This document shows positions 1 through 58,937 of a stretch of 64,000 bases of DNA, one piece after another. The DNA is from Lingula anatina. Lineage: Eukaryota; Animalia; Brachiopoda. The notes beneath the pieces are model-generated. The model was not told where the DNA came from and ran no database searches. It worked only from the letters and a program-made list of their open reading frames with translations. Made by a program: the position numbers and the translations under genes. Within the stretch, counting starts at the first letter, position 1. Each line of letters begins with the position of its first letter. The stretch spans positions 59,994,788 through 60,058,787 of the forward strand of contig CM120640.1 in assembly GCA_051362555.1 (NCBI GenBank). Reading direction: 5' to 3'.

Positions 1-49
1 AAACCTCTCACGAGGCGTTCAAAGTTTTTGATGACATAAGAACCACTTC
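1..49 (-). CDS. TMEM38: TMEM38 alternative exon 4b (truncated by window edge)
   Basis: Acceptor tttttatag (AG 51-50); reads (G)SGSYVIKNFERLVRG, same phase as and homologous to exon 4a. Confidence 0.8.
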
Positions 50-3000
50 CTATAAAAATTATGCACAATTCAAATTGCTGAGCAACTGACTTGTGGTCCT
101 CTTTGATGACGTGTCCTTCCCATTGAAAACTATGAGGAGTAATTTCACTTTTGTTTGTCTCAGTCAGATATGATCTTCCCAGAATTAGAAAATATCTCTT
201 ACTTAATGCATTTTCATCGCAGTAAAATTAACAGAAATTTTGCAACCTCAAACAGTAAAGGTCTACTGAAAATCATTCGCTGTTATGTCATTGTCATTGG
301 GAAAGAGTGCATCACCACAGAGTGCCCAGGAACAGATGGAATCAAGACAAATAAATTTCACATCTTCATTGATTCCATCTTCCTATAATCTTTCAACAAA
401 AGCTTGATCAAAAAGTAATCAATTTAATCAAGTCTTTGTTGTTTTCAATGTGATGAACATAACAAACCTTATGTACTTACAATGTTGGTAATAAAATTTC
501 ATTAACTGTTGGAATCCACACTCCTCGTACCATACGCTCAAAGCTTCTCATAAAAGCAGCACCACCTCCTACAAAATCCAATGTGCTCACAAATCACACA
601 AAACAATGGTGGGAAAGGAAAGTGCAGGGAGAGATGCAGGGTCCACAGTGCAGTCTGCCAAGGACAGTGCAACACTGGGGGGAAGGAAACAGCACAAAAG
701 TGCAGGTAAACAGATAAGAAAACAGAAAAGAAAGAAAAATTCAAACTGCTACTCAACAAAATAACAACATGATAAACATATACAATGGTGACTTAAAAAC
801 AGTATATTGCTCTGATGCAACACTTACTCAGCAAATATGAACATGCAGATGTGTAACAAAATGTCTTTGTAACTTGCTTCCACAATGAAAAATCAGATTA
901 ATTACTCAGCCATTGGAAAAATTATACAAAAAATCTTAAATTATTGTTGATGTGACATCAACTCCCTTTCATACTTTCAATGATTCGTAACAGTTGCAGA
1001 TGTCAAACCACTGCCCAGTTGTAACAACTATTTCATTGCTAACCACTGCCCAGCAGTTGCAGTTATAATAATAAATGCAATGTATAACCATTACTTACTT
1101 GTAACAGCTACCACAATGTTCATCTATTCCCAAGTTGTTACAACTAACAATGTTCAGCAGTAACAATTAACACAACACTTAACTGCTGACCAGCTGTAAC
1201 TACTAACACAATGTATAACCATTGCCTAGTTATAACAACTAGCACAATGTCCAAACATTGCACAGCTGTTACAACTAGCACAATGGTCAACCACTACCCA
1301 GTTTTGACAACTCCAACTGCACCCCCACCTCCAACAATTGACAGCACTTTTGAAGCAAGAAATATAATAGAAACATTTCCATTATGAAGGCCATGACATC
1401 TGACCGACTTCCTAATCATGTGAAAGCTTGTAAGGCTGATTATTTGTTTTCTGTTGCATTTACAAACCTCGTGACACAGCGATTATAATCATTAAAAGGT
1501 AAGCATTTGGATGAAGCTTTGCAGTGATGGCAACTCCGTCATGAACTTGTTTGGCCCTCCGAATTTCAACAGCAAGGAATGCAACTACACGGAGGGGCAA
1601 TAATCTCATAGTTTTGTAGCAGATATCCATAGGTGAGTAGTTGATCAAGTACCTAATAATCACAGGGATAAAGGGAAAAGCAAATTACATCATTGAACAG
1701 ATGTGCAAAGGGTTGGAAGCATTGATGTTTATGAGATATTGCGCCTTTTGGCAATCCTGCAAGATTGAAGGCTGGTCTACAAAAACTAACAGAGTAAATA
1801 GTTTATGTTTTATGTACGATCTGGCAACTGGACCTGCTACAAGCTAGATCAGAATATGAAAATAGATCTGAGAATTTAAAAAGAAAGATTTAATAGTAGA
1901 CTGAATGGTATATTATTAGGGCAGCAATGACAGCAGCAGATCTGAAAAAAATGACGTAGCTATAAGATATAGACTTCTTAATTTTATGCTCTATCTGAGG
2001 ATGAAAAATTCTAAATAAATAATAATTAAAAAATCTGTAGGAAGGTAGTGCTAAAATACAATAATGGTGCTAGTCAAGCAGTCAGTAGCAACTTGGATTG
2101 CACAGCCATTCTAGCACACTGCAAGAACACACCAATACATAATGTTACCTCTAAACAAACAGATCATAGGCAAAAAATACAGGGTGGTCCAAAAAGATGT
2201 ATCCATTTTATTATCCCTATCATTTCAAAGAAAATTTACCCTGTTTCCATGTAAGATATGGCTTTTACGACCAACGCAAATAATGCTGAAAGCTGTGCCT
2301 TCGGAAAAACCATCAGTCAGCCAATCAAAGACCATCTTGATTTCTTGGGCATCATTTTTTTCTGTGACGAGGCAAATGTCCAACTTATTGGTCACGTAAA
2401 CAAAAAATATATGCCCTTTTGGGCTCAGGCTCAGCTGTCACCCACTTCATTAGAAATTGTGTCTGTTTCATGCAGGTTGGGTCATTATGGCATTATCAAG
2501 TAGTCACAGTGAATCAGCACTAAGGAGCTTGGATTGAGCTGATTATAAACTATTGAGCTGTGCTTGCAAAATGGAGGTATGCCAGTAAAAATTATACCAC
2601 AAAAAACTTACATGTCTGTAGGACAGGTGAATGAAAAAAATTGTTTTTTTACTTTCAATAGAAAATGCTACTTCATCAAAAATGGACACATCTTTTTGGA
2701 CCACCCAGTACATAAACATCAACTGAAAAATAATTAACAAAAAATGAAGAAAACAGCAACCATAATGCAACAGAAGCTATGGTCCAGTTAAGCGTGCTGC
2801 TGTTGCCATGGGGAACAGAACTGACCTTTCACCACCCCAATTATGACCATCAGCAAATAGGCATCAGGATAGAGCTGAGCAGTGACCACCACCCCCTGGT
2901 GGACTTTCTTTGCACGCAGAACTTCTTTAAGGACACTAATAACCACCCTGACAGGGAGGAACTTGGCAGCTCTGTACAGTATATCAAAAGGCGAGTAGTT

Positions 3001-6000
3001 AATTATGTACCTGGAATAAAACAGGCACCTGTTGTATTCTGTGCAAGGTTTAACATTTTCATTCTACATGCTGGTGAGCTGCCCTTTCAGTACAAGTGCC
3101 GTAAACACACACATAGTACTCAGGAAAACAGAACATGTTTATGACCTGAAGATGAATCCAGAAAACATTTCTAAGAAAATGAATAACGGCTCCCACTGGG
3201 AGCAAAATTTCAATGTGATTGAGGCATTCATAATATTCATACTGATATAAATATGTAGCAACTGACATAAATATAGTGGAAATAAAGACATAAGTTCACA
3301 TTTTTTTAAACAAACTGACTTCAACATATCACTGACAATTTAATAATAAAGCCTTAAACAAATGTGAAAAACCTCAACACATAAGTGGAATGGATAGCCA
3401 TTTACTATGTTATCACTGAAAAAGCAAAGTTGCAAATCTATGCTATGAAAGTTGTTAAGGAACTGATTTCAAGCTTTTTTTAATAATTAAAATGAAAATT
3501 TCAACCGTGAAAACTTCAGTGACATAAGTAAATAACAATCAGTTTTATCACTTTGTGTAAATGTGTCATGATGAAGACTCATCAGTCTCACTGTCCCACT
3601 TATGGCTAAAATCAAATAACAAATATTTTTCACTTGATTTAGGAAAAATTGCTATAAAATGACCAAAATTAAGGTTTGCCCAATAAAGAGACTAGGGTCT
3701 TCTGTGTGTTAATATGTGGTACAGTGATCATTATAGTGTAAGTTAAGAAGTTTACCTGTAGACAGGAGGGCACACTCCTATAGAATAAGTCACAAGCAAT
3801 TATTGGTAACATTTATATATCAAACTGCTGAGTGACTTAAACCTTTATATCTCTTTTTCAAAAAAAAAAAAAAAACAGCTGGAATACGTAACATCATTCA
3901 GTCAATGGTTATTCTGCATACTGTATTTTACTCACTATTCAATGCTGAAAAATCTACTCAAGTTCTACATCCTTAAAGGAACAATTTGCAAGACTGGCAT
4001 GGATTCATATTTCCCTTTTTTAGGACACATACTGGTGCCACTAATAGTTTGGATCACAATAGGCTGAATGTTGAGAAGTTTTATGAAATTCTTTAAGACC
4101 CTTCCCTAAAAAAAAAGATTATAATAATAATTGTGCATTGAAAATTTTCAAGCAGCATACATTCTTTTTAAGACATGTTTGTAGAAGACTGGGGGGAGAT
4201 GTAGACCATAAACTCACCACACTACTGTTGCTGTTAAGACCATATCGTGTCTCTTGAATGCTACAATACAGGGCTCTCCCAACATCAGGTTGGCAAGGAT
4301 GCTGCCTCCAAAGCACATCAACATGGTCGACACCCAGCATGATAAGGGATGTTTCCGCGAAAAAGCTTGAGATCCTACAAAGTAAAAAATAAATCATTTA
4401 TGGAGTCTATGTGCATTGGTATAATAATATTATATTTGAAATCATACAGCAGGAACAGTAGTAATATTGTTAAATGCATGTCATGTTTGTTACATTGTTG
4501 AGATTATGGTAATAATAATGTTACATTATTGTACAGTTTATATTTCATATCTCACAGAAAACTGTACAGGGATTTATATGGATTTGTAGATCTGATTTCC
4601 ATTTCTGGCAGTAACAGGTACCTACAAAATGGCTTAATTTCTAGAGCCCGTTACTGAGAATCAAGATTACTGGTATATCAAACAACAATGACATTTAAAA
4701 TTGTGAAAACAACCAAGTCCAATTAATATCTCTTCACTATGAGGTTTACCTAAACACAGGCAGGGCACCTTTAATTAATCCCTGTTTCTGTTTCAAATGC
4801 CAATGACCAAGCAAAGTGAGATAGGCTGCTGTAAATCATGTTGCTGAAGTTTCAAAGCATACCTGACATAATAATATATATGCTGTCTACATTTTCAATT
4901 AAGAATCCACAGCATGTGCTCAAGGGGAGGGGGGTTGAGGGGTGAAAATGAACTGCCCTTTTGGGTGGAGATAAGGTCACTTTTGAATAAAAAAATTATC
5001 TAGTTTTATGTACATGCATACATTTTATTGTGAAAAGGCCCACTTATCAAAAAAATGTTTATGTTTATTTTTATTATATATATATATATATATTTTTTTT
5101 TTTTTTGACTGATGAACCTAACACAGACATAACTCTGATTAACATGTCATGGTGTGCCACTATAACTCACTTCAGATTGAAATCAGTAAGACAATAACCT
5201 TTGAGATGCCCCCTCCATATGGTAACAGGGCAACATCTCTCCAAGCACACATCTACCTGTGCATACCTGACATGCAGGCACCTCAGAATTTCAGCTAGTC
5301 CCACTCTATATCCCAACTAGCAACAAGTGACCAATAAAATATATTCAAAGAAACTTGAAAGACTGAATTCCAAAGTCATATCTATTTTATTTGAGGGGAT
5401 TGCACAAGATATGGGAATATTGTTTTTTAATAAAAGATAAAAGATGAACATGTCATGATTTATAAAATAACTCAAATGCTTACCAAAACATAAATATGGT
5501 ATTTCTATACACATAGAGGATGTGTATAACCACATTATCTTATTTTACTTTCAAAAGAGAACAATATACTTTTAAACCATATTTTAACATAATTTTACAT
5601 TATATGTAAACAAAGTTATTTTATACCATTAAAACATCATACTGGATAATAGTTGGTATAGCACTGTTGCACTTGGATATGTTACTTTCATGTTAGTATT
5701 ATACTTAATATTGAGGTGTACAGTACATATTCCTTTTACCTGCCTCACTCTGTGCAGGTCCCAGACCTGCCTACATTGGGCTCTATTATTGTAGAGTTCA
5801 CAGCTGTGTGGATCTTACTGTGCTACCTATATTTACATTTCCTAAAATATCTCACCCTTCCAATATCAGGTTACGTTTCTGCTAGTATGAGGAGTTGCTC
5901 CACCTCTGGCAGCCATTACTAGATCAAGTATTTGATCAGGTAGATATGCATGGATCAATCTAAAAGCATCTTATCCAAAAATTATACCATTTGAAAGGAA

Positions 6001-7771
6001 TTCTGAAAAAAATATATGGATCAACTGCTTTGCCCTAGTCCAGTCCACTTCAAATCTAAACCCTTCCAAAATTATTCTTTTTCAAGAGAAATTGTTTTTT
6101 TTTACAAGATATTATCAATGCACAAGTATATCTAAAGGGGATATTCATCTCTGTCAACGCAGGTGTACGGTTTGTTATTCACACACACACACACACATAC
6201 ATGTATACATGCACCACTGCAGACTGATGTCCTGAATGGTCCAACAGATCATTTTAAATCCACAAACCTATACAGAACCACAGAGATCAGTGGGACATTA
6301 ATTACTGGACATTTCCTCTTAAAATGTTGATGTGAAGACATCCTAATAACCAAATTAAATCTTACTTGAAAGAAATTGAGGAAAAGGTCAACAAGACCAA
6401 GGATAAGTAATTTGATGGTTCAGTACCTGAAACATTTTCCTTGCTTCAGCAGCCAGCCATGTACCCCTCAAACAATACCAACTCGTTCTTGCATAATACT
6501 ACAGTTGTGTATGAATGACCACTGGATAGCCCCAAGTGGACACTGATATATGAGACTATTCAAAACTCTCTGGTTAAATGGGATTGATGAGGTGTGAGAC
6601 ATTTCATACAACAATGATCGTAAAAATTGCCTACTGTGTGCTATACATGTATTTACTTCTTGTAACATTACATGACATGTAGTACAGTTTACAGATCCTA
6701 GCTCTGCCTGTCACGAAAAGAAAAAAATTGCACACACTAATACAAAATATGTTACGTATATTTTGTAATCGAACTTTCCTTGACAAGTCGTAAACTAAAG
6801 TGTTGCTTTTTCATTTCTTAACTTAACATGTAAATATGGGCCAAGTGAACATCTTTTAAACAGATACAGTAGTCAATAACCGTCAGAGAATGAAAGACCT
6901 GCAGAAGCCCTGTGTAAAAACAACATTCCATTGTAATAACTTACAATTTTACTGCAGCCATTATCAAACCAGTGATAAATAAAAACATGTGTGATACTGT
7001 TAACATTTACAAAATTATTTCTGGCATTTTAAATATGCAGTGAATGACTGTATTCTTAATATTGGTGGGGGCTTGAAATCCTATTTTACCATTCATTAAC
7101 GCCTGGAACTAGCATCAGGTAGTTTCTGGCCTCTACCAAACATTTGAAACAATTCAGATATAATTTCATCTGTTTAACTTTACTGCAATTTTATGAAAAT
7201 GTGTAATTCTATTGTGGAACATTAATAACAAGTTGCAGTGTTCCCCATAATCTGACCCAGAACAAAATTAGCAAAAAGGGCAAAAATACTCATATAATAA
7301 AAATATTTCAAAATTGTTCAATTTTAAAAGAAAATATTCCATTTAGCTAGTTAAATCACGAACTCAATTGCTCTTAAAGGTTAATTTGTAATAAAGATAA
7401 CAATATCAGTATATTAATGGAGTAATGATTAATAGTCTTTGTTTACAAACTGCTTAAGTGACATGGCAAAGACAGATCTTTGCAAAATACACAGATAAGG
7501 ATATGGTACATAGGTATAGCATAAACCAAACTGCATAATAACGCGTATGCAATATGTACTTTAAGATCTTCCACTAAGTAATCGCACTTTAGCACACGTA
7601 ATACTACGGGTAGGCGCAGAGATTCCACTGCCAGAGCGCCGACTTACCGGTCTGTGGCGAGTCTTCACGGACCGCTAGTGCCATCAAAATATAGTGACAA
7701 ACGTCAAAGTACGGCCACATTTTTAGTTTAGAGACCGTCGTCGCTATATTCATGAAGGTTTGTGGATCCAT
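1..7771 (-). CDS. TMEM38: Trimeric intracellular cation channel (TRIC/TMEM38), 5' part, with duplicated exons 3 and 4
   Basis: ATG 7771. E1 7771-7648 (MDPQTFMNIATTVSKLKMWPYFDVCHYILMALAVRED), E2 4374-4218 (SRKHPLSCWVSTMLMCFGGSILANLMLGEP), E3a 3010-2826 or E3b 1652-1468, E4a 568-481 or E4b 49-<1. All GT-AG with matching phases; TRIC motifs SRKHP, FGG, GEP, KEVxRxxK, ERxxRGxW. Runs off the left edge. Confidence 0.93.
481..568 (-). CDS. TMEM38: TMEM38 alternative exon 4a (88 nt)
   Basis: ttttgtag acceptor, gtaagt donor; reads (G)GGAAFMRSFERMVRGVWIPTVNEILLPT. Confidence 0.88.
1003..1312. repeat. Degenerate ~36-bp minisatellite
   Basis: About 8 diverged units resembling AACCA(C/T)TGCCCAGTTGTAACAACTAGCACAATG. 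Confidence 0.6.
1468..1652 (-). CDS. TMEM38: TMEM38 alternative exon 3b (185 nt)
   Basis: attattag acceptor, gtttgt donor; YLINYSPMDICYKTMRLLPLRVVAFLAVEIRRAKQVHDGVAITAKLHPNAYLLMIIIAVSR, no stops or indels. Confidence 0.88.
2180..2708 (+). mobile_element. Internally deleted Tc1/mariner-superfamily transposon
   Basis: TA TSD (2178-2179, 2709-2710); ~30-bp TIR CAGGGTGGTCCAAAAAGATGTxTCCATTTT; transposase remnant IIFFCDEANVQLIGHVNK, resembling the first catalytic Asp motif (FSDEA..L.G.VNK). Confidence 0.8.
2826..3010 (-). CDS. TMEM38: TMEM38 alternative exon 3a (185 nt)
   Basis: tttattccag acceptor, gtcagt donor; YIINYSPFDILYRAAKFLPVRVVISVLKEVLRAKKVHQGVVVTAQLYPDAYLLMVIIGVVK. Not represented in the ORF track. 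Confidence 0.9.
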
Positions 7772-8441
7772 TTTGAAATTGTGTGGGAACACTCCACAAA
7801 AGGAGACGGCGAAAATCCTGCACCTCGACCGGAAATATCGAAAGAAAGAGAGCGCACGCGCGAGGGATTTCCCCAAAGTGAAAGGTCTTTGAGAAACAAT
7901 GATAAATATGTAGACTAGCTGTATGTGCACTGCCTCTTACACGCATGTTTTCTTTCTCGTTGTGCAAGTTTTAAACCAAACAAAAAGTAACAAAAAAAAA
8001 AAAAAAAACTATAAAACTAAAATGTCATTACTAAATTTGCATTAACTTAGTAAGACAAACAATTAAAATTGAGTCTGCTGAGCTTGCTGAGACAGATCGG
8101 TTTACACTGTTGTGTAGCCGACAGGTGCAAAATGTGAGTGTCTTTACGTTAGGATTTTTCCTCATTCACTGATATAATTGACGTAAGATAAAGATTAGGC
8201 ATACCATGTTATTAAATAAAGCTGTTGTAACAAATATGCATCAGAGGGGAGGGGCTAAAGCGCCGCTTTAGAGGTGAAATCTGTAATATCGCTTTTAAAC
8301 AGATATCCCTCACCTGAATTTAGCTACATGTACAGGAATGTACCAAGTAAAATGTTTCGCCTCAGTTTTCGTCAAAGGACACAGTTTTGTACAAAAATCA
8401 GCATAGGCAACCACGTGCTTTTGAAATGACTTGTATTGAAC

Positions 8442-11582: not shown

Positions 11583-14507
11583 TGAGCGTGTTTGAAAAAT
11601 GTCTCTTAGTTGTCATAACGTTTCAGTGTGCGGTGATGAAGTCTGTGAAGCAGGTGAGGAAAATTGCCAGGTGTGTCCACATGACTGCGGGCCGTGTCCG
11701 CTCCCCAGGTGGCAGATTGGTCTGATGGTAACTGCTGGGGTGGTGGTGCTCATCACCGTAGCCACCATATTTGGAGTACGTTGTTTTTATTATATCGCAT
11801 CGTCAGTTTAAACTATATCGACATAAAGAACCCTTTTTTAATTTGTCAAGATGAGACAAATATTGTAATTGATCTGCATAATGGCATTAACGTAACTGTT
11901 CACACAATTTTTTAACTATTTAGACACCTAACCACAAAACGTCTTTTCTTTTCAGTACTTTCATTGGAAGCAACAGAAGTTGCTATGGGATGAAAGTTGG
12001 ATAATTTCCTACGGCGATGTGTTAGCAGGTAAAAACGATCTCAGTATAGATGTGATTTTTTTTTCAAAATTATTGATCAATGCAGGTGTAGATGTTTATG
12101 TTCTTGAGTACAGATCTGCGTAAAAGGATCGAGTCCTCAAACGCATAGTGAGAACTCACTGGTGAGAACTCTGTATACTGCTCACGTGAATGCATTAGAT
12201 ACGTCCACCAGTCACATCTACCACAATTCACGCCACTCTGAATGACACCTAACACCAAGCTGTACGCGGCCTCTTTCAGATACTACATACAATGGTTTGT
12301 TGGGCAGTGAATGGAGCCTTGCTGCCAGCTCAGCCAGCTCTGTCAGCCAATTTAATGCTGATGTGGGAGAAAAGAACAATTTTGCAGCAACAGCCAGGGT
12401 GAAGCAAATATTCACGCAAACTGGGATTTTGTAAGTACACTTGCCTCAGTCAGTTTTCAGCCATGCATGCTACGCAGGTACCGGAATATAGGAGTTGCTA
12501 TTAGTTTGTATTCGTTGTCCATTTTTGGATGATAAAACGCTTTTTATCACAAAGTTTATCTGACCAAACATCTCTTTTTCAAAATGGAAAATGAAGTACT
12601 TTTCCCCTCTTATTTTCATAGCAAGAACAGATTGGTTTCCATAAAAAGAATAGAGAAGAGGTATTTCAGCTTAACCAAAATTATCAGGTTGGAAGTCTCA
12701 CAAGTCAGGTATGTGGCATATGTATATATCTAGTATAAATCAGTTATCTAGGAATGCTGCAATCATTTTTTCTATGAACAGTTTTTGTAGTTAACATTTA
12801 TTTTGAGGTTTACATTGTTTGAGATGCAAAATGATGAAACTATATATATGAATTTCCAAGATTAAACTGAGGCAATACATATGAGCTGAATAATTATTGT
12901 TTTTTTTTTTAATTCTACCAGACAGCTGGATCATGTTAACCTGGTAAAATTTATTGGAGGTTGTGTTGAGATCCCTACTGTGGCCATTATCACAGAGTAC
13001 TGCCCTAAAGGAGGCCTTAATGATGTGCTGCAAAATGATGAGATCCCTCTCACCTGGGCCTTCAGGTAATATTCTGAACTGCCTATAGAATATGTATGGA
13101 TAAACCAAGCTTAAATATATCATTATCTTATTAGATTTATGAAAAAAGAAATCACAGATTTGTTATATTCAAGATTTTAAAAAAATCAAGTTATTAATGC
13201 TTTACAGAGTCTGCAGTGCCTGCATATAAATGTCACATAACATTATCTGTAGATTTTTGTTTGTCTTTTCAGATTTTCTTTTATACATGACATAGCTCGT
13301 GGTTTGCATTTTCTCCACTATAATAAAATAACCCATGGGCGTCTCAAGTCTCCAAACTGTGTGATAGATGACAGATGGACTGTAAAAATATCTGGTATGC
13401 CACACTTCATTAACAGCTTATCTGCACTGGCCAGAATATTTAAATGGTTATGTAATAGAGATTACGGTATAACCTCAGCAGATCTTCTAATTTTAATTAT
13501 TAAAATAATACTCAGAATTGCAATATCATCATTGTACAATTGGATGCAAGTTTAATTCCTTTTTTTTAACAGTCAATATAAATATTCATGCTATGTTTTA
13601 CTTCTAAACAATATCTAGGCACCATTGCTTAATTCTTTGTCAGACTTTGGACTTGCTACATATCGTGAAGATGTGGAAGAAGACAAGTACAGGAGTAAGG
13701 CCTGCAGAGTGTATAGAGCCCCAGAGCTGACACACCTTCCTGCTGCTCAACCAACACCAGAGGCAGATGTTTATGCATTTGCCATCATTCTAGTAGAAAT
13801 TGCCACAAGGAATGGACCATATGGGGTAAATAATTTTTGTTTCTGTAAAAGTCCTTGCTGTAATCTAAGATCTAATATACCGTTTATTAGATCTTAGCTG
13901 TAATATACCGTTTTTAAGAGAATGCTCCATGGCATATTTGAGCAACAAAAAGTCCTGTTAAAGTAGAAATTAAACAATTATTGGTCTTGGCTGAGGTCAG
14001 TTTGTTGTTTTGCAGATCTCAGATAAGTGATTTTTATAAGATAGCACACTGTCACTTGAGTGATATTGGCAGAACACCTCAAGCATCAGCTCTTCATTTG
14101 CTTATTAAACAGTGTAAAGCTAGACCTGTCCTTATGTGGCACAGATTCCTTAAAGGTTGCTGCACCAAAGGAATGTAATTTGCTTTCACTTTTATTACAC
14201 AGGATAGTCTCTCCAAATTTTTTTATAGAAACTCAAAACATATCTTTAAAAAATTGACTAGAATTTTTAATGGCTTTTTTCAAAGACTTGGTAAAGTAGC
14301 ACTTTTAACTCTACATTATTTAAAATAATTTGTTTAAAAAATATTTTGCCTTTTTTCACTAGACTTTTATATACTGTATTCATATTGTATTGTAAAGCCT
14401 ACAGAGTGTAAAGAGTCCCAGAACTGACACACTGCTGCTCCGCCAACACCAGAGGCGACGTTCTGGTAGAAATTGCCACAAGAAACATAATTGAATTTGA
14501 CTCCTTC

Positions 14508-14546
<39 letters not shown>

Positions 14547-16103
14547 TATTATTATTATTATTATTATTATTATCGATGCTGAATAAATTACAGTTTAATT
14601 TGTTCCCTTGCAATTATCCTGTTCCAGGAGGAAGATATTGATGACCTACCTGACCACTGGAAGCCCAGCCTACCAGATTTACAAAGTTCTGGTAAAACAA
14701 GTAAAGAATACTCTTGTCCTTGTGGTGACCAGTACATTCAGGTAACAAAGTTAAAGAAATACTGCAGTGATGGTGCTGATTAAAACAAAATTCAAAACTA
14801 AAATTAAAACTGTGCAAGTGCAAGATAAGTACAAACATGTTGTAATTTGAATGGATGCAGGTTGTGAAATTAGCATATGACTTAGAGGGAAATATACAAA
14901 AAGACTTGAATGTTTGTTATAATGGGGTTTTTCCCATTTAAAAACAGTTTTAATACTTAAACAGAAAAGCTTTGTTTTCAGTTAATAAAGCGCTGCTGGA
15001 GTGACAATCCATTTGACAGACCAAACTTTGAACAAATTAAGCGACAAATCCACAAGATCAACCCCAATAAACAGAGCCCAGTGGATATGATGATGACCAT
15101 GGTAAGCTGCTCTCACTTTTTTTTTTTTTTTTTTTTTTTTGTAAGTAGGAAAAATACTGTGCTTTATAAACTTTGCTTATCATTCATTTAAATCATTTCA
15201 TTATTAAATTTATTTTGCCTGGTAGTTGAAAAACAAAACTCAATGTACACTTTGTTTCTAGATGGAGAAATATTCAAAGCATCTGGAAGTGATGGTTGCA
15301 GAGAGAACTCAGGATCTGATGGCAGAGAAGCAGAAAACAGACAGACTATTATACAGTATGTTGTTAGATGTATAACATATAACTACATGTACCAGACACA
15401 TAATTACATGTATATGGCATGTCTTTCATGTCATTCAGTTAACAAATGAGATATAATTTGGCAGAGAAGACTAGTAATTCTTATACTCAGTTATGGTAGT
15501 ATACATATACTGGGGTATCTATGTATCAGCTGTTTTTCCAAAAGAATGATTCAATGGAACACAATGAAGGACTTTGATTGAAATTGTATCTCTGTGGAGA
15601 TGAAATCAGTAGGCAGATCTATTAAGTTGAAATATATTTCCAGGCATGTTACCTAAAAGTGTAGCAGATGCCCTGCGTCTTGGAAAACCAGTTCAAGCAG
15701 AGTCCTTTGAGTCCTGCACCATTTTCTTTAGTGACATTGTGGGTTTCACTGAGCTGGCAGGACACAGCACACCTCTGGAGGTGGTCACACTGCTCAATAA
15801 ACTGTACACATGCTTTGATGAAATCATTGACAGATACAGTGTATATAAAGTGGAAACAATAGGGGATGCATGTAAGTACGGTTGGTGTATGGTGGATTTT
15901 GTTGCAAAGTGTACTAGTATGTGAATTGTTGTAACACAACTTTTCTTTGATGGTCAAATGACCATGACTCCTATTTTGGTACAAAATGTTATTAATCAGA
16001 TTAAACATAACAGGTTCATAAACAACATCACCAAATGTCATATGTTAGTATATAATCAGGTTATTACAACTTATACAAGTACATTGGTGATTATACAATG
16101 GAA

Positions 16104-16153
<50 letters not shown>

Positions 16154-17839
16154 TTGTATCATGCATACAAAATTAATGCATTTATGAATTCATTGGATGT
16201 TGCAGATATGGTTGTATCAGGAGTTCCAATAAGAAATGCAAACCACCACTGTAAAGAAATAGCTAATCTGGCTATTGACTTGGTAAAGGAAAGTGAAATG
16301 TATGTTATACCTCACAAACCTTATGAGTCACTCAGGATAAGAGTGGGACTGCACTCGGGTATGTTAGATGTAGGATCTTTCAAACACAGCGCCATCTTGG
16401 ATCAAAAAATAATAAAAATGTGCCATTTGAATTTTACAGATGACCAAATTGATCTTCAATGTGGAATTTATTCATATAAATGTTTTAAACCCCAGTACAA
16501 TAGGCCATGTAAGTACACTGCCCTGTGCTACAATTTATATTGAGGTGGCTAACCCATCTTTGATTAAATATTTGCTATTGTTGTTTAGGTCCAGTGTGTG
16601 CAGGAGTAGTTGGTTTGAAGATGCCCAGGTACTGTCTGTTTGGTGATACTGTGAACACTGCCTCCAGGATGGAGTCTACAGGGGAAGGTAAGTATAGTCA
16701 GCATGGTGGTCTTAGAACGCATTCAGAACAGCTGACTTACATATCTGTGGATTAAATATGGCTGACCCACTTGAATGCTTGTTGCATAATCCCCGTGGCG
16801 AATCTATTTAGTGTCTAATCGGAAATTAAGCGGCAATCTTTTTAGTGGGTCACCATATTTGATCTGCAGATCTGTTAGTCTGCTGTTCTGAATGTGCTCT
16901 TAGTGAGTATTACTGTACATAATTCTCATGACATGTCTATCATTCTTCAGGGAGCGTAGGGTCATCTTGTCTCTGCATTTTTTAAAAAAAATTTTAAAAT
17001 TTTAAAATTATTTTGTAAAAAAGCAATTAACACACAAAATGTGTCCTATTTAAAGATATACTGTACAAGATTTTGGTGCAAGGATTTTTCTTTATGGCAT
17101 AAGCCTTGCGATTAGTTGCAAGCATTCCTTGATTTTTCACTTCATGTAAAATTTTATTTTTGAGAAGGGAACAGAAATTCAGTTACTTAAATATGATGAT
17201 AAATGTACTCGTTTAAAGATATTAGTGCAGGTCATCATCATTTAACAAAGAATATGGAAAGATTTAAGATGTTGGACATTCCATATGATATTCCTTTCAA
17301 AGGGCAATGATGCATAACAGTTACCATTCCTTATAACAACAAGCCACCAGAAACGGTTAATAAACAAATCAAATAAATAGAAAAGTGACTGGCTCAATCG
17401 GATAGTGCTAGTTAACACACTGTTCATGTGAGCAGTGTGCAAATTTCAGACACTAAAAGATATGAATTATGATTTGAAGGTGAAGTGTTGTATGATACAT
17501 TCCAGCTGGGAAAATCCACATAAGTGATACCACATACCAGCTGCTACAGGAATATCAGGGGTTCTGCTGTCAATCCAGGGGGACCATCCCTATCAAGGTA
17601 GGTGACATTTAATTTGTATTCAAAATTATTGCTAACATACAAAAAATTGACTGACTTCGTGGTGATTGATTCCCTAGCTCAGAGTGAACAAATAACAAGA
17701 TTTCCTCATTATGTGACATTTCTAGGGAAAAGGGGACATGAAAACCTGGTGGTTAGCAACATTCCCAGCAAACAGACTAGAAGAAGTGAAAGCTAACATT
17801 CTTAGAAATGACAGCATCAATGAAATACTAGGTATGTAA
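10008..17839 (+). CDS. Single-pass receptor guanylyl cyclase (~858 aa) with short Cys-rich ectodomain
   Basis: 19 exons: 10008-10073, 10215-10320, 10737-10893, 11043-11368, 11627-11775, 11956-12028, 12280-12430, 12622-12708, 12922-13065, 13273-13394, 13644-13825, 14628-14741, 14982-15101, 15262-15355, 15644-15871, 16206-16358, 16589-16687, 17506-17597, 17726-17839 (2577 nt, in frame). Signal peptide, TM ([22 protein letters not shown]), kinase-homology domain (EYCPKG, HGRLKS, DFG), coiled coil ([16 protein letters not shown]), cyclase motifs [42 protein letters not shown] with the GTP-specifying E and C. Confidence 0.92.
11551..11580. repeat. (TG)n microsatellite
   Basis: Perfect dinucleotide run. 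Confidence 0.95.
14392..14484 (+). pseudogene. Decayed partial copy of guanylyl cyclase exon 11 inside intron 11
   Basis: gtaaagcctacagagtgtaaagagtcccagaactgacacac...ccaacaccagaggc...tctggtagaaattgccacaag aligns to ~13695-13810 with substitutions and deletions; no splice sites. Confidence 0.8.
14508..14573. repeat. (AAT)n joined to (ATT)n, a self-complementary microsatellite
   Basis: Read directly. Confidence 0.9.
16107..16150. repeat. (AT)n microsatellite
   Basis: Read directly; similar runs near 5076-5092 and 18339-18371. Confidence 0.95.
16715..16899. mobile_element. PIF/Harbinger-like MITE
   Basis: TTA TSD; TIR GAACGCATTCAGAACAG...CTGTTCTGAATGTGCTC; related copy at 40827-41092. Confidence 0.7.
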
Positions 17840-23400: not shown

Positions 23401-26400
23401 AACATGGAGGCACATATCACACTTTAAACAATGAAAGAAATTGTCTCTACCACCAACTCTGAAATCACAAATATAAGAACTTTGGAGAGGTAACAACTCT
23501 TTTATCCCTTGTATCTCATGTATTATTTATGACGAGCATGTACATCATACCAGATATTGATGGTAAATAAAATCAGTATGCAAATGCCCAAAAACATATA
23601 ACAATATTTTTTTATGAAAAGGCAATTAAAGAATAATATGACAGATGAGTAACTTAAGACATTTAAGTCTACAGAGATATTAAACATACATATTTAGATA
23701 AAAACATCTCAACCTTAATTTTTGCCAAAGTACCTGCATATTCCACAGGCATCACAATGAAACTGCTTCTTATCCTGGTCATCAAACAAATTGCACACTT
23801 GACAGAAATACTTTCCAAACTGGACCATGCACTGTCTGCAATTACTGGCCACCTATATGTGGACATTTCTTTTAAAAATCAAAGTAATCCTATTTTATAG
23901 TTTCACAGAAAAAAGGTTACTAGTAATTAGTTTCTGTCTATACTTCAGGTTTTTAAAAAAACAAATTTAATTCCATAACATATTTATCCAATTAAAACTT
24001 CACAATGCACATTAAGGCTTCGTTCACATGCAATGTCTATTTTCTAAATTCTATTTTCTATTTTCGGTATGTCTTATGATCACGGTCTGTGCACTGAATA
24101 TCCCGTGGCGTAATTACTGGCAGCGCGAGCCAGTTACTATAAGTTACTATAAGTAACTGGCTCGCGCTGCCAGTAATTACGCCGCGGGATATTCAGTGCA
24201 CAGACCAGGCCCGTAGCCAGGGGGGGGTCGGGGGGTTCGAAAGAACCGCCCCTTTTGCTGGGAAAAGGTCCACTCTGGGTAAAATTTTATCTAGGTACAT
24301 GAACATTTTATGGGAAAAGGTCCACTTTTTCAGTAAAAGAACCCCCCTTTTGAAATTGCTGGCTACGGGCAAGCAGACCGTGGTCATAAGATAGCGCGAA
24401 TAGAAAATAGAATTTAGAAAATAGACATTGCATGTGAACGAAGCCTAAGTGTTCCTTATATCAAAATTAAATAAATGTAGACAGAAACAAACAAACAAAT
24501 AAACTAGAGGATCAGAGAGGCGATACCGCCTCCAGATATTGTACCACCAGCTGGAGTAAGCGCATTCGTATGGACCCCCCCCCCTCCTAAAAGGGACACC
24601 ATCACCAGTCTGGTGTTTGACAAGCTCTATAAGATGCAATCAACAAGAGTTCTCAAAATATGCAAAAAATATAACTAAAAATGATACAATCAAGCAGATT
24701 TTCAAATTGACTTGCATTTTCCTACCCTTGCTCACTACTGTATTCTCTAGACAAAAGGCCTATTGGTTTTCCTTGAAATGTGTTGTCAATGGTGCATATA
24801 TGCTGACAAAAGAGAAAACCTAGGGGAAACAATGGGCACATCTCTGCTAGATTTCAAGATATGAGAGGCAAGAAAATATGCAAAGCTCAGTTCATGGTGA
24901 AAAAGTAGGTCAAAGGTCAATTTCAATATCATAGTATATGAATTTCTATTCAAGTTCAATAGCAACCATGGACATTTCTTTGCCAATTTTGCAGATTTAA
25001 AGGCCAGAAAACATGCAAAAAGCAGTTCATCATAAAAAGTAGGTCAAAGGTCAATTTCAAGGTCACAGATTGCTAGTGTATTACTTCCTATTCAAGTTCA
25101 ATAGTAACTATGGACCTATCTGTCAGTTTTGAAGATAAAGGTGAACGAAAATTTGCTAAGTTCAGTTCATAGTAAAAGGAAGGTCAAAGGTCAATTTAAA
25201 GGTCACAGTAAATTGCCAGTTCATGACTTCCTATTTAAGTTCAATAGTAACTATGGACCTATCTCTGCCAGTTTTGGAGATTAAAGGGAACAAAAATTGG
25301 CAAAGTTCAATTCATGGTGAAAAGTAGGCCAAAGGTCAATTTTAAGGTCACTGATTAATTGCCAGTATGTGACTTCCTATTCAAGTTTAATAGTGACTAT
25401 GGACCTATTATGGGCGGCGGTTTATACAAAAATGCAAAACACGATTAGTCGTCATCGTTATCAGATCAGTCGAAATGAAAACACGATTAGTCGTCGTCGT
25501 TATCAGATCAGAAGGCAAAATACGACTAGTAGTCGTCAAAACGCAACTAGTCATCAAAACGCAACTTGTCATCATCAAAACGCAACTAGTCATCATCAAA
25601 ACGCAACTTGTCATCAAAACGCGATTTGACGCCAGATGGCGCCCATTGTACGAAAATCTAGGCCAAGTCACATGATCCACAGTGATCAAAATGGCGGACG
25701 TTATTGAAGCAGCATTATCATATTCCTCGCTCGAACTCGAGAATTATCTCGAGTTCGAGATATTATTATATATATAATATCATTATTAGATTGTACGCGT
25801 AGAGATAATTCTCGAAATAATAAATAATTAGATAATTTATTAAATAATTTGGACATGTTATAAATTTAAAAAAAAACAAAAACACACACTTGTGAAGCAC
25901 TGCTTTATTGTTGTACTCATTTCACAAGTTCCAGATATTATTATATATATAATATCATTATTAGATTGTACGCGTAGAGATAATTCTCGAGGTCGAGCGA
26001 GGAATATGATAATACTGCTTCAATAACGTCCGCCATTTTGATCACTGTGGATCATGTGACTTGGCCTAGATTTTCGTACAATGGGCGCCATCTGGCGTCA
26101 AATCGCGTTTTGATGACAAGTTGCGTTTTGATGATGACTAGTTGCGTTTTGATGATGACAAGTTGCGTTTTGATGATGACTAGTTGCGTTTTGATGACTA
26201 GTTGCGTTTTGACGACTACTAGTCGTATTTTGCCTTCTGATCTGATAACGACGACGACTAATCGTGTTTTCATTTCGACTGATCTGATAACGATGACGAC
26301 TAATCGTGTTTTGCATTTTTGTATAAACCGCCACCCATAACCTATCTCTGCCAGTTTTGGATATTAAAGGGAACAAAAATTGGCAAAGTTCAATTCATGG

Positions 26401-29201
26401 TGAAAAGTAGGTCAAAGGTCAATTTTAAGGTCACTGTTAAATTGCCAGTATGTGACTTCCTATTCAAGTTTAATAGTGACTATGGACCTATCTCTGCCAG
26501 TTTTGGAGATTAAAGGGAACAAAAATTGGCAAAGTTCAATTCATGGTGAAAAGTAGGTCAAAGGTCAATTTTAAGGTCACTGTTAAATTGCCAGTATGTG
26601 ACTTCCTATTCAAGTTCAATAGTAACTATTGACCTATCTCTGCCAGTTTTGGAGATAAAAGGGAACAAAAATTTGCAAAGTTCAGTTCATGGTGAAAAGT
26701 AGGTCAAAGGTCAATTTCAAGCTCACATCTAGATTGCAAGTAAATGACTTCCTATTCAACTTAAATAATAACTATTGACCTATCTCTGCCAGTTTTGGAG
26801 ATATAAGGGACTAAATGTTACAATTCTGAGTTACAAAAATGTGCCACCACAAAGTACTTTTTAATACAGCATAACACGAAAACCGTATGAAATACAAAAA
26901 AACGGAGACCACTCTCAGTGTTGGGCTTTACATGCTCTACAAAATGCAAAAAAGAACGGGTCGCTAGCATTAACGGTTCCCGAATTAGAGACAGTTTTCA
27001 TTTTCGGTATTTTATGGCCGCTACTCCTGTGAAAATGCACCGATTGACCCCAAATTCACAGAGATGAAAGATGACCCAAAGGGTAACACTTTCCAATATA
27101 ATTATTGGTTAAGTCTGTGTAGTGTCTGAATAACAGTGCAAATAATATTTTTTTTCGTAAAAAATTTCATTTTTTTGAAAATTTTGGCCCGTTTGACCTT
27201 GAAATAAAGGTCAAAGGTCAAATCCAAGGGCATATTTGAAATCTACACATATGACTTTTGGAAAGCCGTCTGTAGAAAATTTTCCCATAATTCCTTCCGT
27301 AGGGTAGATAATTGGCATTGAATTTTCAAAAATTTTGACAAGGGTGCATTTCAAGGAGCGTCACGCCCAGGTCAATGTACCGACTGAGACAAAAAAACCT
27401 GGGGGTTCAAGTTGAGGTTATATGTGACCTAAATCCAAGAGATGGGGACAGGGGTCCTTGCGGTCTAGGAGGAGAAGCGGTAACGGTGACTTGTATCCGG
27501 CGCCAGTACGCGGAGCCGGCGGAGCTTACGGAGCCGGCGGAGCCAACGGAGCCGGACGAGACGGGTCGGGACTAAAACCATGAGTACCGCCAGCGTACAC
27601 GCTGGTGGTACTAATAAAATCTTGTGTTATTCTTTTTTGCTTCAACCTACTGGTTGCTGTTCTGCACACTTGAGACATTTCACCTTCCTCACATCTTTGC
27701 GTTGTATTTGGTGTTGTTCAGCTTCATCATGGCACACACGACATGTGTAGATCTTGTTGCAACATGGTGTCTACATGATTGAAAAAAAAAGCAAGAATAT
27801 TCTTTAAGTTCACTTATATTTACAATTAAAAATACTTTTCATTTCATAAAAAAATTAATAGCAAATCTCAAATGGTCTTCCAAGTAGTGACAATGAAGCA
27901 GGGCCGTGGACAGTCATTTTGAAGGGGAGATTCTATTCCTGAAAAAGTGGACCTTTTACCATGAAACTTTTGATTAAATTTTACCAAGCACGGTGTCACG
28001 TGAAGAAACTGTCGTCGTGAATAAACCGTTCTGGCGGATTATTCACGCGGGGGTAGCAGTCTGTTGACTTACAGTATGTAGCTGCACATGCATTTCCATC
28101 ATTTCCCCGTAGAGAAAGTTGTAGTATTATCAAACACACAATTTATTTTTAATGAAAATGACTGAACTCTGAATTGAAAGAACATTGTAGAGTGAAAAGA
28201 TTTATACTACGAGTCTTAGATCTGCCACGTTTTTTACACAGAGCAAAACAGTTCAGTCACGATCAAAAGCTCACTTCCAACATTCCCCCGTATACTGTAT
28301 TAATAAGATTATCAAATACATACTCTCTCATGACGAAAACCACAAAATTATGAATTGGAAAATCATAGTTCAGTGCAACCATAGCGCCTACTTAGGACGA
28401 CATCATCATACCGGAAGTAACTTCTTTCAATCTACCCTCAATGCGCATGTGCAGAACGGTTTCGTCACGGCACGGGTCTATCACGCCACACCGACCATTT
28501 ATTGGCAAAAGGGGGTCGTTTAACCCCTTCTCCTCATCTTGGGGGGGGGGGGCAGAGCTGACATATTAAAGAAGTAATACTCTTTCTTCTTTACGTGATA
28601 CCATGCAATGCCTCTTATTTAAACCTACTAGTATGTAAATGAAGACAAGATGTTCTGGCATTCTGATTAATTTTATATATTTCCCTGGTGTACCCAGTGG
28701 CGGAGTTAGAGGGAGGGGATGGTCAGGGGAATCCTGCCCCCCCTCCCCCCCCCCCCCCCTTCGGTTTCTGGTCCCCTCTTGAAATAAGAATTTTGACTAC
28801 AGTAGCTGAATCAAAGTTTTAAACCGTCAAAAAAGTTCGGGGCCCATGATACATGACACATGATAGTGAGGTGCAGCGGTCCCCTCCCCCACGTTTACAG
28901 CACAGTTAAGTACTGAGTATAAGTGCACAGATTTACATTATTATTTGATACTTGGACCTAAATAGATTGATACTATGCCAGTAATTTACAACTCCCAAGA
29001 ATCAAAGATTTAATATGGCACTCAGTAAAATTCATTCAATCTTTCATAGCTAGACAAGCTTCAATAATTATATGGAATAGCTGATCTTACAATAAATGCA
29101 CATTTACGCCTGTAGTGTTCACATCCCAAGTTTTTTTCATCAGAATCGGTAGATTTTTCGTTGACATCACTACTGCCATCTGCACTATCCGTGTCCGCCA
29201 T
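20449..29201 (-). CDS. RCHY1: RING finger and CHY zinc finger protein 1 (Pirh2) E3 ligase, ~315 aa
   Basis: 9 exons: 29201-29091, 27770-27651, 23852-23734, 23458-23380, 23218-23115, 22340-22311, 21723-21579, 21108-21006, 20585-20449. Motifs [75 protein letters not shown]. The last exon is the least certain. Confidence 0.95.
24016..24445. mobile_element. Second copy of the long-TIR Harbinger-like MITE, centre deleted, with a nested insertion
   Basis: TAA TSD; GGCTTCGTTCACATG...CATGTGAACGAAGCC. Confidence 0.85.
24206..24373. mobile_element. GC-rich MITE with 5-bp TSD nested in the Harbinger-like MITE
   Basis: cagac|CAGGCCCGTAGCCAG...CTGGCTACGGGCAAG|cagac; removing it restores the host TIR sequence. 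Confidence 0.8.
24503..27612 (-). mobile_element. Helentron-associated (HINE-like) element with central 146-bp tandem repeats, in RCHY1 intron 2
   Basis: One end ACTAGAGGATCAGAGAGGCGATACCGCC, other end hairpin GTACCGCCAGCG-TACA-CGCTGGTGGTAC; no TSD, A-rich flanks; homologous copy at 36611-38362. Confidence 0.8.
25409..26339. mobile_element. Foldback element with ~350-bp TIRs and 6-bp TSD, inserted in a HINE repeat unit
   Basis: acctat|TATGGGCGGCGGTTTATAC...GTATAAACCGCCACCCATA|acctat; the host unit reads tatgg-acctat-ctctgcc. Arms carry 18-21-bp repeats (TCATCAAAACGCAACTAG). Confidence 0.85.
27994..28490. mobile_element. Degenerate TGT...ACA MITE (Ginger-like)
   Basis: Imperfect TIR TGTCACGTGAAG...AAACCGTTCTG vs TGTGGCGTGATAG...AAACCGTTCTG; flanks acgg/ccga. 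Confidence 0.45.
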
Positions 29202-30234: not shown

Positions 30235-33200
30235 TAAGGGGGGGGAGAGGTTAATTGTCGCCGTTTCCGCTGCACGAATATGTTAGTGGCCTAATTGCGA
30301 GATTCTCGAGGGGGCGTGTCCGAGGGTCACTCAAAACACAATATAAAAAATATGATATCCAACACCTGAATGCTCTATAAAGATTTAAAAAAGAGTGTTT
30401 TATTTTTCAGGGCATACTGAAGTTGGGGATTGCTGAGAACAAGCTGACGGAAGAAATCATTATCAAACGGGTGTGAGAAACAACACATGACTGTTGAAGT
30501 CTTTGGAGTCCATTATCTTTCAACATAAAATTCAAATTTTCTAGTATCTGTAAAAGGATAGAACGTATTGCAGTTTTAAGCCAAATGTTTTACAAGGGTG
30601 CAACGTGCTGCAGTTTTTAGCGCCAGTCAAACAATTTGATCTTATACATATATTTACAACGATCAAAATAAACTTGATGTGTAAATTTGGCACAAATATC
30701 AATTTTTTATTATTCTTACATTGTTATGTAACATTTACAATTGCAGCTCTCTGCCCCCGACATGCATGTAGTCACCCCTGATATGCTGTATTATTTTAAC
30801 TACATTGGCGAGAAGAGGTAGACCTACAACGAGGGGAAAAAAACGGGAAATCAATTACACTAGTGCTACTCTTTAAACTTGTAAAACAATAAAATGTATT
30901 TTTGGGCTTAGTTAAAATTAAAGCGCAATTCAGAGGAGTATCATGTAGGAATAGATGCCAAAATGTAATATGATATGTTTAATATTCCTCTCTTGTGTTT
31001 TAGCTTCAGGAACGCTATTGCCGAATTTATCACAGAAAGATTCCACACACGTAAGCCTGTTGACCCAGACGATGTAAGTGGTAGGTCTATCTGGTTCGAA
31101 GTTAAGTGATATGATTAGATGCGATAATTAACTCGGCTACTAAAATGCTACACCAGTGTTTGTCTGCGTGCTGCGTTGCTCTGTGTGAATTGATGTCATT
31201 GTTTTATGAGTCACCGATTAAGGTGTTTTCATTTATTTTATTTGACCATTTTTATGTTTAAGGTGTTGGTCATCAATGGGTGTGGTACTGCCCTGGAACA
31301 ACTCCCTGCTGCTGTAGCTGACCCCGGGGGTGAGTGGAGCACTTACGTGCCTTTTGTATTTGTAATGGACTAAATTTAATGGTGTAGGTATATCGTAATA
31401 TCAGTTTTTGACTATGTCATTTCTCAGATTATTTTCTTTTTACAGACTTCTTCCTGTGCCCATCGCCCGTCTACAGTTCTGTCCACGCGAACGCAGAACT
31501 GAGGATGAAAGTCAAGTGTTTCGATGTGCCATTGAAAAGCAAGGTTGTCTGTTTGTTGATGTTTGTCTTGTTAATTTTATGGATGAACAAATAAGTTCGG
31601 CTCTGCTGAGTTTTGCATTTAACTTTATTGCAGAAAAGTTAATTAGTCAAGGTAATGAAGGTGGTTTGTTTGTTGAATTTGCTTCTTACCAAAGGCTAGG
31701 TATGTGGTGACGGCATTTCTAATCAACAATTCGCTCACAATACAGAAATGAGCACAGAATTATTTTTAGTCAGAGAAATATAAATATCTAATGAAGAATC
31801 TCTCTGCGGCCCTTGTAGAAGGTAGCTGAGGTCTGCGTTTTCTTTTGATTGGATGCATAAAACACGCTTAATCGACTAGATGCTGATAAATAGGGGAGCT
31901 TCTATCTCTGAGCTCCAAAGAACTGACGATGACTCTATTTACCAACAATATGTTCTCCGTCATTGTTTTAGTATCTCGGGTAAAATTAGCTTACGCTATT
32001 TAGGAACCAGCAAACTAATATTGGGTCCTAGATTATATAGAGGAGTTTTAGAAAAATTATGAAAAGCAAACTGAAGAGATATTAATGAACTTTAATGTGA
32101 TGTTATCGTGTTTGATCTTGTTTTCAACCCATCGCAAAATATAAGTATGCTCTCAATTACAGGCAAGTGATGCTGCAATAAGGCCATTCCAGCTTACGTT
32201 GGCTCAGATAGAAGGTTCATATAACGAGGCAATAAAACTGGTGCGTGCATAGTCATTGGGATAAAACTACAGAAAACGTGTGATCTCAATAAGCATTCTC
32301 TACATATTGATATATCATTGTGATAAACGTATTTTAGAAGAAAGCAACACGATACACGTTTGCAATATTACATCACCATGTCACTTGTGCAGTGCTAATC
32401 GGTCTCTTCAGGGATTGAAAGTAAAAGGCATATTCCTCATAAACCCCTGCAACCCAACTGGAGAAATCTGTTCTCGTGACCTGCTGACAGAAATATTAAA
32501 CTTCGCAAAAAGGTATGATTCACCTTTTTTTGACCATATGAATTCCTATTATACGTATATTTCAAATGTCCCCTGTGCCCTTTTCTGTTTTAGTTTTAGG
32601 CCCAAATATTTCAGCGAGGTATATGGTCCAGGGTTTAATATCTGTTTTCATAATATTCTTTGTTCTTTCAATAGTCGATGTCTTCATGTAATAGTTGACG
32701 AGATCTACGCCTTGTCCGTGTTTGATTCAGAGGCCAGGTTCCACAGCGTTCTCTCACTTCCAGATCTCCCAGACCCTCAACGCACGCACGTTCTATGGGG
32801 ATTTAGTAAAGTAGGTAACTCCCATGCCAATAAATTATTTTCCACTTTTGCGTATTATTTTCTTTCGACGAAAAACTATTCAAAACACCTATTAAAGACG
32901 TTAAACGGTGGCGCTGAATCTAGTGTTTTTAAACCAAACAGGCGATAACAAACTTATTTCGTGCACATTTAATGTTAGTTATTGACAACCACGAGTGAAT
33001 AAGGAGCGGGGCAGTGTTTTGTAGAGTAACTGAGTTGCTTGGCATGTCCTCATAATACTTTAGCAGAGGAATGCAATGTAAACGGAGAAGGCCGCTTGAA
33101 AAATGAAAAGAAGGCGGCTTGAGAACCAACTGGAAATAAAATGACATGAAAAAATATAACGCTGTTGTATTTACTACCTCATGTACATGTAACAACAGAA

Positions 33201-58858: not shown

Positions 58859-58890
<32 letters not shown>

Positions 58891-58893
58891 TTG

Positions 58894-58937
<44 letters not shown>

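Follow-up and report, generated by a model that had tools for sequence, protein, structure and literature searches.

Alternative M4 exons with and without the conserved lysines in the TRIC gene of Lingula anatina

In animal TRIC channels, which are intracellular potassium channels, a conserved lysine of the M4 helix has been described as both gate and voltage sensor, and the counter-ion role of these channels is itself disputed (PMC7940156, PMC11381013). The TRIC gene of the brachiopod Lingula anatina carries two versions of the exon encoding this helix, and the second version, exon 3b, has neither of the two conserved M4 lysines. This raises the question of whether exon 3b is a real and regulated part of the gene, and what kind of channel it would form. 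No description of the Lingula exon switch or of natural lysine-free TRICs was found among titles and the openings of abstracts, most subscription journals lying outside that search.

Exon layout and the residues replaced in exon 3b

The window, which is the whole stretch of 64,000 nt that was analyzed (contig CM120640.1, positions 59,994,788 to 60,058,787), contains the TRIC/TMEM38 gene with exon 3b on its minus strand. The one protein matched in a search with this exon was named Lingula anatina TRIC 1B.1 isoform X2, and the Lingula isoforms X1-X4 are already present in RefSeq as automatic models. The exon map was built by tblastn of the proteins P0001-P0003 onto the window combined with RNA splice joints. 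Coding exon 1 (7648..7771; residues 1-41) encodes helix M1 with H26 and was also delimited by the joint 4373/7647 and by read ends; the transcript start is likely near 7818-7823, where many RNA reads end. The constitutive coding exon 2 (4218..4374; residues 42-94) encodes M2-M3. Two tandem exon pairs follow, exon 3 for helix M4 and exon 4 for the kinked helix M5. Exon 3a (2826..3010) encodes the canonical M4 with K122, R126, and K129, and exon 3b (1468..1652) encodes the variant M4 with V122, R125, R126, Q129, and R155. Exon 4a (481..568; residues 156-185, including the glycine kink of M5) is the main partner of 3b, and the mutually exclusive exon 4b, of which the window holds the beginning (1..49) and which continues past its edge, is the partner of 3a. 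The TRIC pore is reported to be built from TM1, 2, 4, and 5 (PMC5143425), and exons 3 and 4 together provide the C-terminal half of its lining. A second Lingula TRIC gene was not found among the best 120 of 440 protein matches.

Several other features were observed in the window. The intron between 3a and 3b contains an element of about 530 bp (2178-2710) with 32-nt terminal inverted repeats (94%) flanked by TA, which we take to be a likely MITE of the Tc1/mariner type; loose-ended reads at this element suggest further genomic copies. The intron between 3b and 4a carries a degenerate tandem repeat with a 36-nt unit (1000-1316). Outside the TRIC gene, Pfam matches marked exons of a receptor-type guanylyl cyclase with kinase-like and cyclase domains (13253-16543, plus strand), of a transglutaminase (58498-63734, plus strand), and of CFAP95 (50958-51320, minus strand). 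Two aminotransferase class I/II exons that resemble each other and probably belong to tandem paralogs lie on the plus strand at 32265-32948 (Pfam) and at about 40950-41228 (frame list only). Arrays of a 145-146-nt repeat occupy 24872-26810 and 36823-37372, and the region 25321-26394, between two such arrays, resembles an inverted duplication.

The peptides of both exons were as given in the preliminary description. Exon 3a reads ...SVLKEVLRAKKVHQG...VVKG (3010-2826, minus strand), and exon 3b reads ...FLAVEIRRAKQVHDG...VSRG (1652-1468, minus strand). In full-length numbering, both M4 lysines are replaced in 3b, K122 by valine (AAA>GTT; codon at 1568..1570) and K129 by glutamine (AAA>CAA; codon at 1547..1549). 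The further changes L125R, which adds an arginine, and K155R (VKG>SRG) are also present, and R126 is retained (codons of R125 and R126 at 1556..1561). Thus, the KEVxRxxK motif, as named in PMC5143425, is intact in 3a and reads VEIRRAKQ in 3b. Both exons are 185 nt long, with an AG acceptor, a GT donor, and identical phase, and they share 58% nucleotide identity. As single exons, they matched the Pfam TRIC family above the cut-off (57.1 bits for 3b and 75.7 bits for 3a), and the complete 3b+4a protein scored 230.6 bits against PF05197 (cut-off 25.9). RNA depth over 3b reached about 80, and the changed codons carried no listed variant; the changes are not due to chance or misreading, because RNA reads cover 3b and show it spliced to exons 2 and 4 at the expected positions.

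The alignment of both exons with all six eukaryotic TRIC sequences of solved structure, among them 5egi, 5eik, 6iyu, and the mutant entries 6iz1 (Q) and 6iz0 (A), contained no gaps. The entries 6iyu, 6iz1, and 6iz0 are assumed here, partly on the basis of PMC11381013 and PMC7202670, to be chicken TRIC-A, and 6iz3 to be frog. The alignment equated Lingula positions 122 and 129 with K129 and K136 of C. elegans TRIC-B1, and R126 with worm R133. V122 therefore stands at a residue reported to bind the PIP2 head group (PMC5401562), and Q129 at worm K136 and chicken TRIC-A K129, the pore-occluding lysine (PMC7940156, PMC7202670). The K129/R133/K136 triad cited in the preliminary description is in worm numbering; the vertebrate gating residue K129 corresponds to the second lysine (worm K136, Lingula Q129) and not to the first. 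The TRIC-A entries share the Lingula numbering, and 6iyu, 6iz1, and 6iz0 differ within the aligned stretch solely at position 129 (K, Q, and A, respectively); by this alignment, exon 3b naturally bears the K129Q change made in the laboratory. The other two substitutions proved less special than had been implied, since worm TRIC-B1 has a lysine at the position of R125, and arginine occurs at the position of K155 in the TRIC-B of 6iz3 and in P0089.

In worm TRIC-B1/B2 (5egi, 5eik), the overall fold (TM 0.90-0.91), about 47% of the residues, the His partner in M1, and R126 are shared with the 3b form; K129 and K136 of KEVxRxxK are V and Q in Lingula, and the worm forms are separate genes, by their PDB names, whereas the Lingula forms are spliced alternatives. 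In the chicken K129Q and K129A proteins, the mutated column is that of Lingula Q129, and the glutamine of 6iz1 is identical; the mutants keep K122 and have Tyr in M1 facing the gating lysine, where Lingula has His, and their change was engineered, whereas that of Lingula is natural and splice-switched. The prokaryotic channels SsTRIC, SaTRIC, and RsTRIC are likewise described as having no such M4 basic residues, and also no PIP2 binding (PMC11059273, PMC5401562). They have Phe at the pore center and a protein plug and share 13-17% identity with the 3b form, which is otherwise a eukaryotic TRIC.

An AlphaFold model of the 3b+4a protein had a pLDDT of 83.6 and a TM score of 0.90 to 5egi, and Foldseek gave TM scores of 0.88-0.92 against eukaryotic TRICs. 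The model predicts that 3b+4a retains the TRIC fold of seven helices, with M2 and M5 kinked at glycines, although it leans toward the canonical fold because canonical homologs made up the underlying alignment. The number of basic residues in M4 is five in both exons, and positions 122, 125, 126, and 129 share one helical face.

Alternative splicing of the tandem exons

Of the nine raw-read RNA runs listed for the same species, eight, coded X1-X8 without tissue or stage labels, were mapped onto positions 1-8200 of the window, with about 6% of X1-X6 and 25% of X7-X8 being read, and splice joints were listed from at least 3 reads; the counts refer to RNA and not to protein. Over all runs, exon 2 was joined to 3a by 304 reads and to 3b by 209. 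The reads joining exon 2 to 3b and 3a, respectively, numbered 67 and 0 in run X1, 50 and 0 in X2, and 44 and 0 in X3, as opposed to 12 and 139 in X4 and 8 and 143 in X5; they numbered 17 and 8 in X7, 11 and 14 in X8, and 0 and 0 in X6, where 75 reads were placed in total. The share of 3b was thus 161/161 in runs X1-X3 versus 20/302 in X4-X5. These results confirmed that 3b is spliced into RNA, and it was the sole exon-3 form seen in X1-X3. In these three runs 3a had zero depth and 4b almost none, a pattern that suggests splicing and not deletion. Exon 3b is therefore spliced and regulated, with a near all-or-none switch between samples. An assembly artefact or a collapsed allele was rejected, as both exons were joined to the same exon 2 within the single runs X4, X5, X7, and X8, and the junction reads also led to the rejection of 3b as an unexpressed relic.

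Neither a joint from 3a to 3b nor a joint skipping both was listed in the eight runs, against 513 exon-2 reads going to one or the other, and the two exons are mutually exclusive, with one copy per transcript. Inclusion of both or neither of the 185-nt exons shifts the reading frame, so that decay of such transcripts could add to the exclusivity. Downstream, 3b was joined to 4a by 151 reads and to 4b by 21 (20 of them from X7 and X8), and 3a was joined to 4b by 178, the joints to 4b being undercounted because the window holds just 49 bases of this exon. The choice of exon 3 is coupled to that of exon 4: most 3b joints led to 4a, and all listed 3a joints led to 4b. The preliminary description did not mention this second, coupled pair. 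The joint from 3a to 4a that belongs to RefSeq isoform X3 (P0122) was not listed in any run. RNA pairing between introns was considered as a cause of the coupling, and shuffle tests did not support it. In a first docking/selector test, the best intron duplexes were matched by 1/25, 0/8, and 1/25 shuffles, and in a fuller test of 6 intron pairs by 39 to 153 of 300 shuffles.

An alternative exon 4 also occurs among the isoforms named for Tubulanus, Lineus, and Owenia, all with one exon 3, indicating that the exon-4 choice is older or recurrent. A second exon 3 was not seen outside Lingula among the aligned TRIC isoforms. The Tubulanus isoforms P0006/P0024 and P0039/P0133 differ in the first exon as well. 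Mutually exclusive tandem exons are known in ion-channel and muscle genes, for example in those of voltage-gated Ca2+ and Na+ channels. The Lingula exons resemble these in being tandem duplicates of equal length and phase that are used one at a time in a sample-dependent manner, but in Lingula it is the gating residue that is lost in the swap, and the choice is linked to that of a further exon pair.

Age of exon 3b and lysine loss in other TRICs

Exons 3a and 3b encode 34/61 identical residues without a stop, with saturated synonymous sites (pS 0.78) and a pN of 0.30, and 3b appears to be an old tandem duplicate of the M4 exon. In simulations of a neutral copy, the frame and 34/61 residues were kept in no more than 2/10,000 cases at 0.5 or more changes per site and in 8/100 cases at 0.3 changes per site. 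This retention speaks for past selection, and not necessarily for present selection. In a tree of 55 rows and 61 columns, 3a and 3b were sisters with weak support (92/0), and the branch of 3b was longer (1.99) than that of 3a (0.72). Against 7/7 outgroups 3b had more derived changes than 3a, with p<0.05 in 2/7. Among strongly conserved columns, 7/21 were changed in 3b, 3/21 in 3a, and 4/86 in the other exons; the excess in 3b was not significant against 3a (p 0.28) and was significant against the other exons (p 0.0009). The pore-lining exons 1, 2, and 4a retained 40/42 such columns. Relative to the reference, reads of X7 and X8 showed A121V, L114V (X7 only), and one silent change in 3b and G157V in 4a (X8); in all, three amino-acid changes and one silent change in 3b+4a stood against none and two silent in 3a, these being small numbers. 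The amino-acid alleles fit relaxed constraint on 3b+4a, and no variant was listed at positions 122, 125, 126, or 129 in the RNA runs. No ortholog of 3b was found among 15 candidates, 55 candidates, and 403 metagenome stretches, which is weak evidence of absence because these searches were word-limited.

The best 120 of 440 matches supplied 119 further proteins for alignment, of which 118 have K122 and all 119 have K129; in close non-Lingula homologs aligned over 230 residues, K122 was present in 134/135 and K129 in 135/135. A divergent set was also assembled from 50%-identity representatives (best 150 of 785 matches), 100 of which covered M4. Of these, 62 had K-R-K, 23 were without K122, 30 without K129, and 16 without both, and 3 had Q129; one of them, P0223, has V-R-Q as in exon 3b. 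These representatives are predicted proteins, some possibly mis-predicted, and the clustering enriches divergent copies. In these alignments, lysine loss is very rare in close homologs but not in divergent ones. In a quick tree of 77 rows (64 representatives aligned over at least 200 residues and 13 references), in which many forks were unresolved, loss of K129 required at least 15 changes, Q129 at least five separate origins, and the state with no basic residue at either 122 or 129 at least 7 changes. Uniqueness of the lysine loss to Lingula 3b was accordingly rejected, as it recurs independently in other TRICs. Full-length divergent TRICs without one or both M4 lysines were P0223, P0306, P0234, P0170, P0204, P0267, and P0291.

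A metagenome scan with the 3b peptide detected two other TRIC genes with K122-R126-Q129, L001 (183-995) and L002 (19-355), both arthropod-like with Gln at the gating lysine; their Q129 is subject to ascertainment bias, because the search pattern contained Q. A third match, L003, was rejected as a relative of 3b, being a chance match. The L001 cluster has 75 members, and Q129 was present in 12/12 of those covering M4 among the 15 listed. L001 was placed among arthropod proteins, and its grouping with Lingula 3b was rejected by the AU test (p 2.6e-6). Two intron positions are common to L002 and the Lingula TRIC gene, and the M4 region of L002 is split by a further intron. The conserved Q129 in these other TRICs argues that glutamine is compatible with some normal function. 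The divergent, uncharacterized eukaryotic TRICs (P0223 with V-R-Q, the L001/P0143 cluster with K-R-Q, P0306, and P0234) resemble the 3b form in having lost K129 or both lysines. They differ throughout the protein and have a separate origin, whereas in Lingula the variation is confined to one exon of an otherwise conventional gene, from which the canonical form is made as well.

Possible channel behavior of the 3b form

The roles reported for the M4 residues bear directly on the behavior of the 3b form. Avian TRIC-A at rest is occluded by the conserved lysine of the voltage-sensing domain (PMC7202670), and a review describes the K129A mutant as constantly open and the K129Q mutant as mostly closed (PMC7940156). 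In worm TRIC-B2, K130 and R134 are reported as ligands of the head group of PIP2, which plugs the gate on the cytoplasmic side; K136/137 lies at the pore center, with His34 and Lys136 enclosing a central site (PMC5401562), and the worm trimer is destabilized without PIP2 (PMC5477506). Voltage dependence has been ascribed to the TM4 Lys/Arg residues missing in prokaryotes (PMC11059273).

The best explanation, to which a probability of roughly 45% is assigned, is that exon 3b, an old tandem M4 exon spliced in place of 3a in a sample-specific manner, may give a voltage-insensitive and mostly closed TRIC. An uncharged residue 129 would uncouple M4 from voltage and from the loss of luminal Ca2+, and the helix would no longer be a voltage-moved gate. 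Gln129 would act as in the chicken K129Q protein, and Val122 would weaken the PIP2 plug. In cells with 3b+4a, the K+ counter-current during ER Ca2+ release would be damped, and cells with 3a+4b would keep the regulated channel. The K129Q phenotype may not transfer to Lingula because the residue facing position 129 differs between the two channels. Moreover, the gate could open once the PIP2 plug is lost, and hence the two lysine losses could act in opposite directions. The unchanged basic count of M4 and the placement of R125 on the same helical face also speak against this explanation, as do the conduction of prokaryotic TRICs lacking such residues, the conserved Q129 of other TRICs, and the amino-acid alleles of X7 and X8.

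It is rather unlikely that 3b+4a instead forms a voltage-independent and largely open K+ leak, ungated by loss of the occluding lysine and of one PIP2 anchor. Such a leak would agree with the open state of K129A, with the plugging of the gate by PIP2 through the counterparts of residues 122 and 126, and with the reported conduction of prokaryotic TRICs without these M4 basic residues (PMC11059273, PMC5477506, PMC5401562). Moreover, with 3b as the sole form seen in X1-X3, those cells may still need a conductance. On the other hand, the natural residue is Gln, whose engineered counterpart is the mostly closed one, and R126 and the new R125 are still there for lipid binding.

An improbable alternative is a non-conducting 3b+4a protein that acts as a scaffold or regulator for partners such as RyR, IP3R, and STIM or that dampens the trimers into which it mixes. 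TRIC-A is reported to interact with STIM1 independently of the store state (PMC7202670), the significance of TRIC voltage dependence has been called unclear (PMC11381013), and both forms co-occur in runs X4, X5, X7, and X8. However, exons 1, 2, and 4a preserve the conserved pore lining, and each TRIC protomer has its own pore (PMC11059273, PMC5401562), so that a mixed trimer need not be damped. The modulatory subunit put forward in the preliminary description, if mixed with 3a channels, is unlikely in runs X1-X3, where 0/161 joint reads led to 3a.

Compensation is quite improbable; here R125 would take over from K122 a helical turn further along M4, the channel would tolerate Q129, and the gating of 3b would be close to that of 3a. 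The equal basic count on a single helical face, the Q129 conserved in the L001 cluster and present in L002, and the lysine of worm TRIC-B1 at position 125 are in its favor, but that lysine coexists with worm K129 and is not known as its replacement, both engineered changes at position 129 strongly altered gating (PMC7940156), and K129 is invariant in the 135 close homologs. Finally, relaxed selection on an exon spliced where TRIC activity hardly matters, with the lysine losses as decay, would account for the long branch, the excess of derived changes, the amino-acid alleles, and the missing ortholog, but it is very unlikely given an intact frame at saturated synonymous sites that a neutral copy would rarely keep, the coupled and near all-or-none splicing, and the recurrence of V-R-Q and Q129 in unrelated TRICs.

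The 3b switch is thus real, expressed, and regulated, and it lies within a known channel family. As a broader but tentative reading, animals may repeatedly build TRICs without the gating lysine, and Lingula may do so through a coupled splice switch of M4 and M5, the entire inner half of the pore, that turns the ER counter-ion channel from a voltage-gated into an ungated one by tissue or stage, providing a natural copy of K129Q in an otherwise identical protein. The finding points to a wider and apparently unstudied group of animal TRICs without the gating lysine. Since one Lingula gene makes lysine-gated and lysine-free forms with the same flanking exons and switches cleanly from sample to sample, it offers a direct natural test of the role ascribed to this residue.
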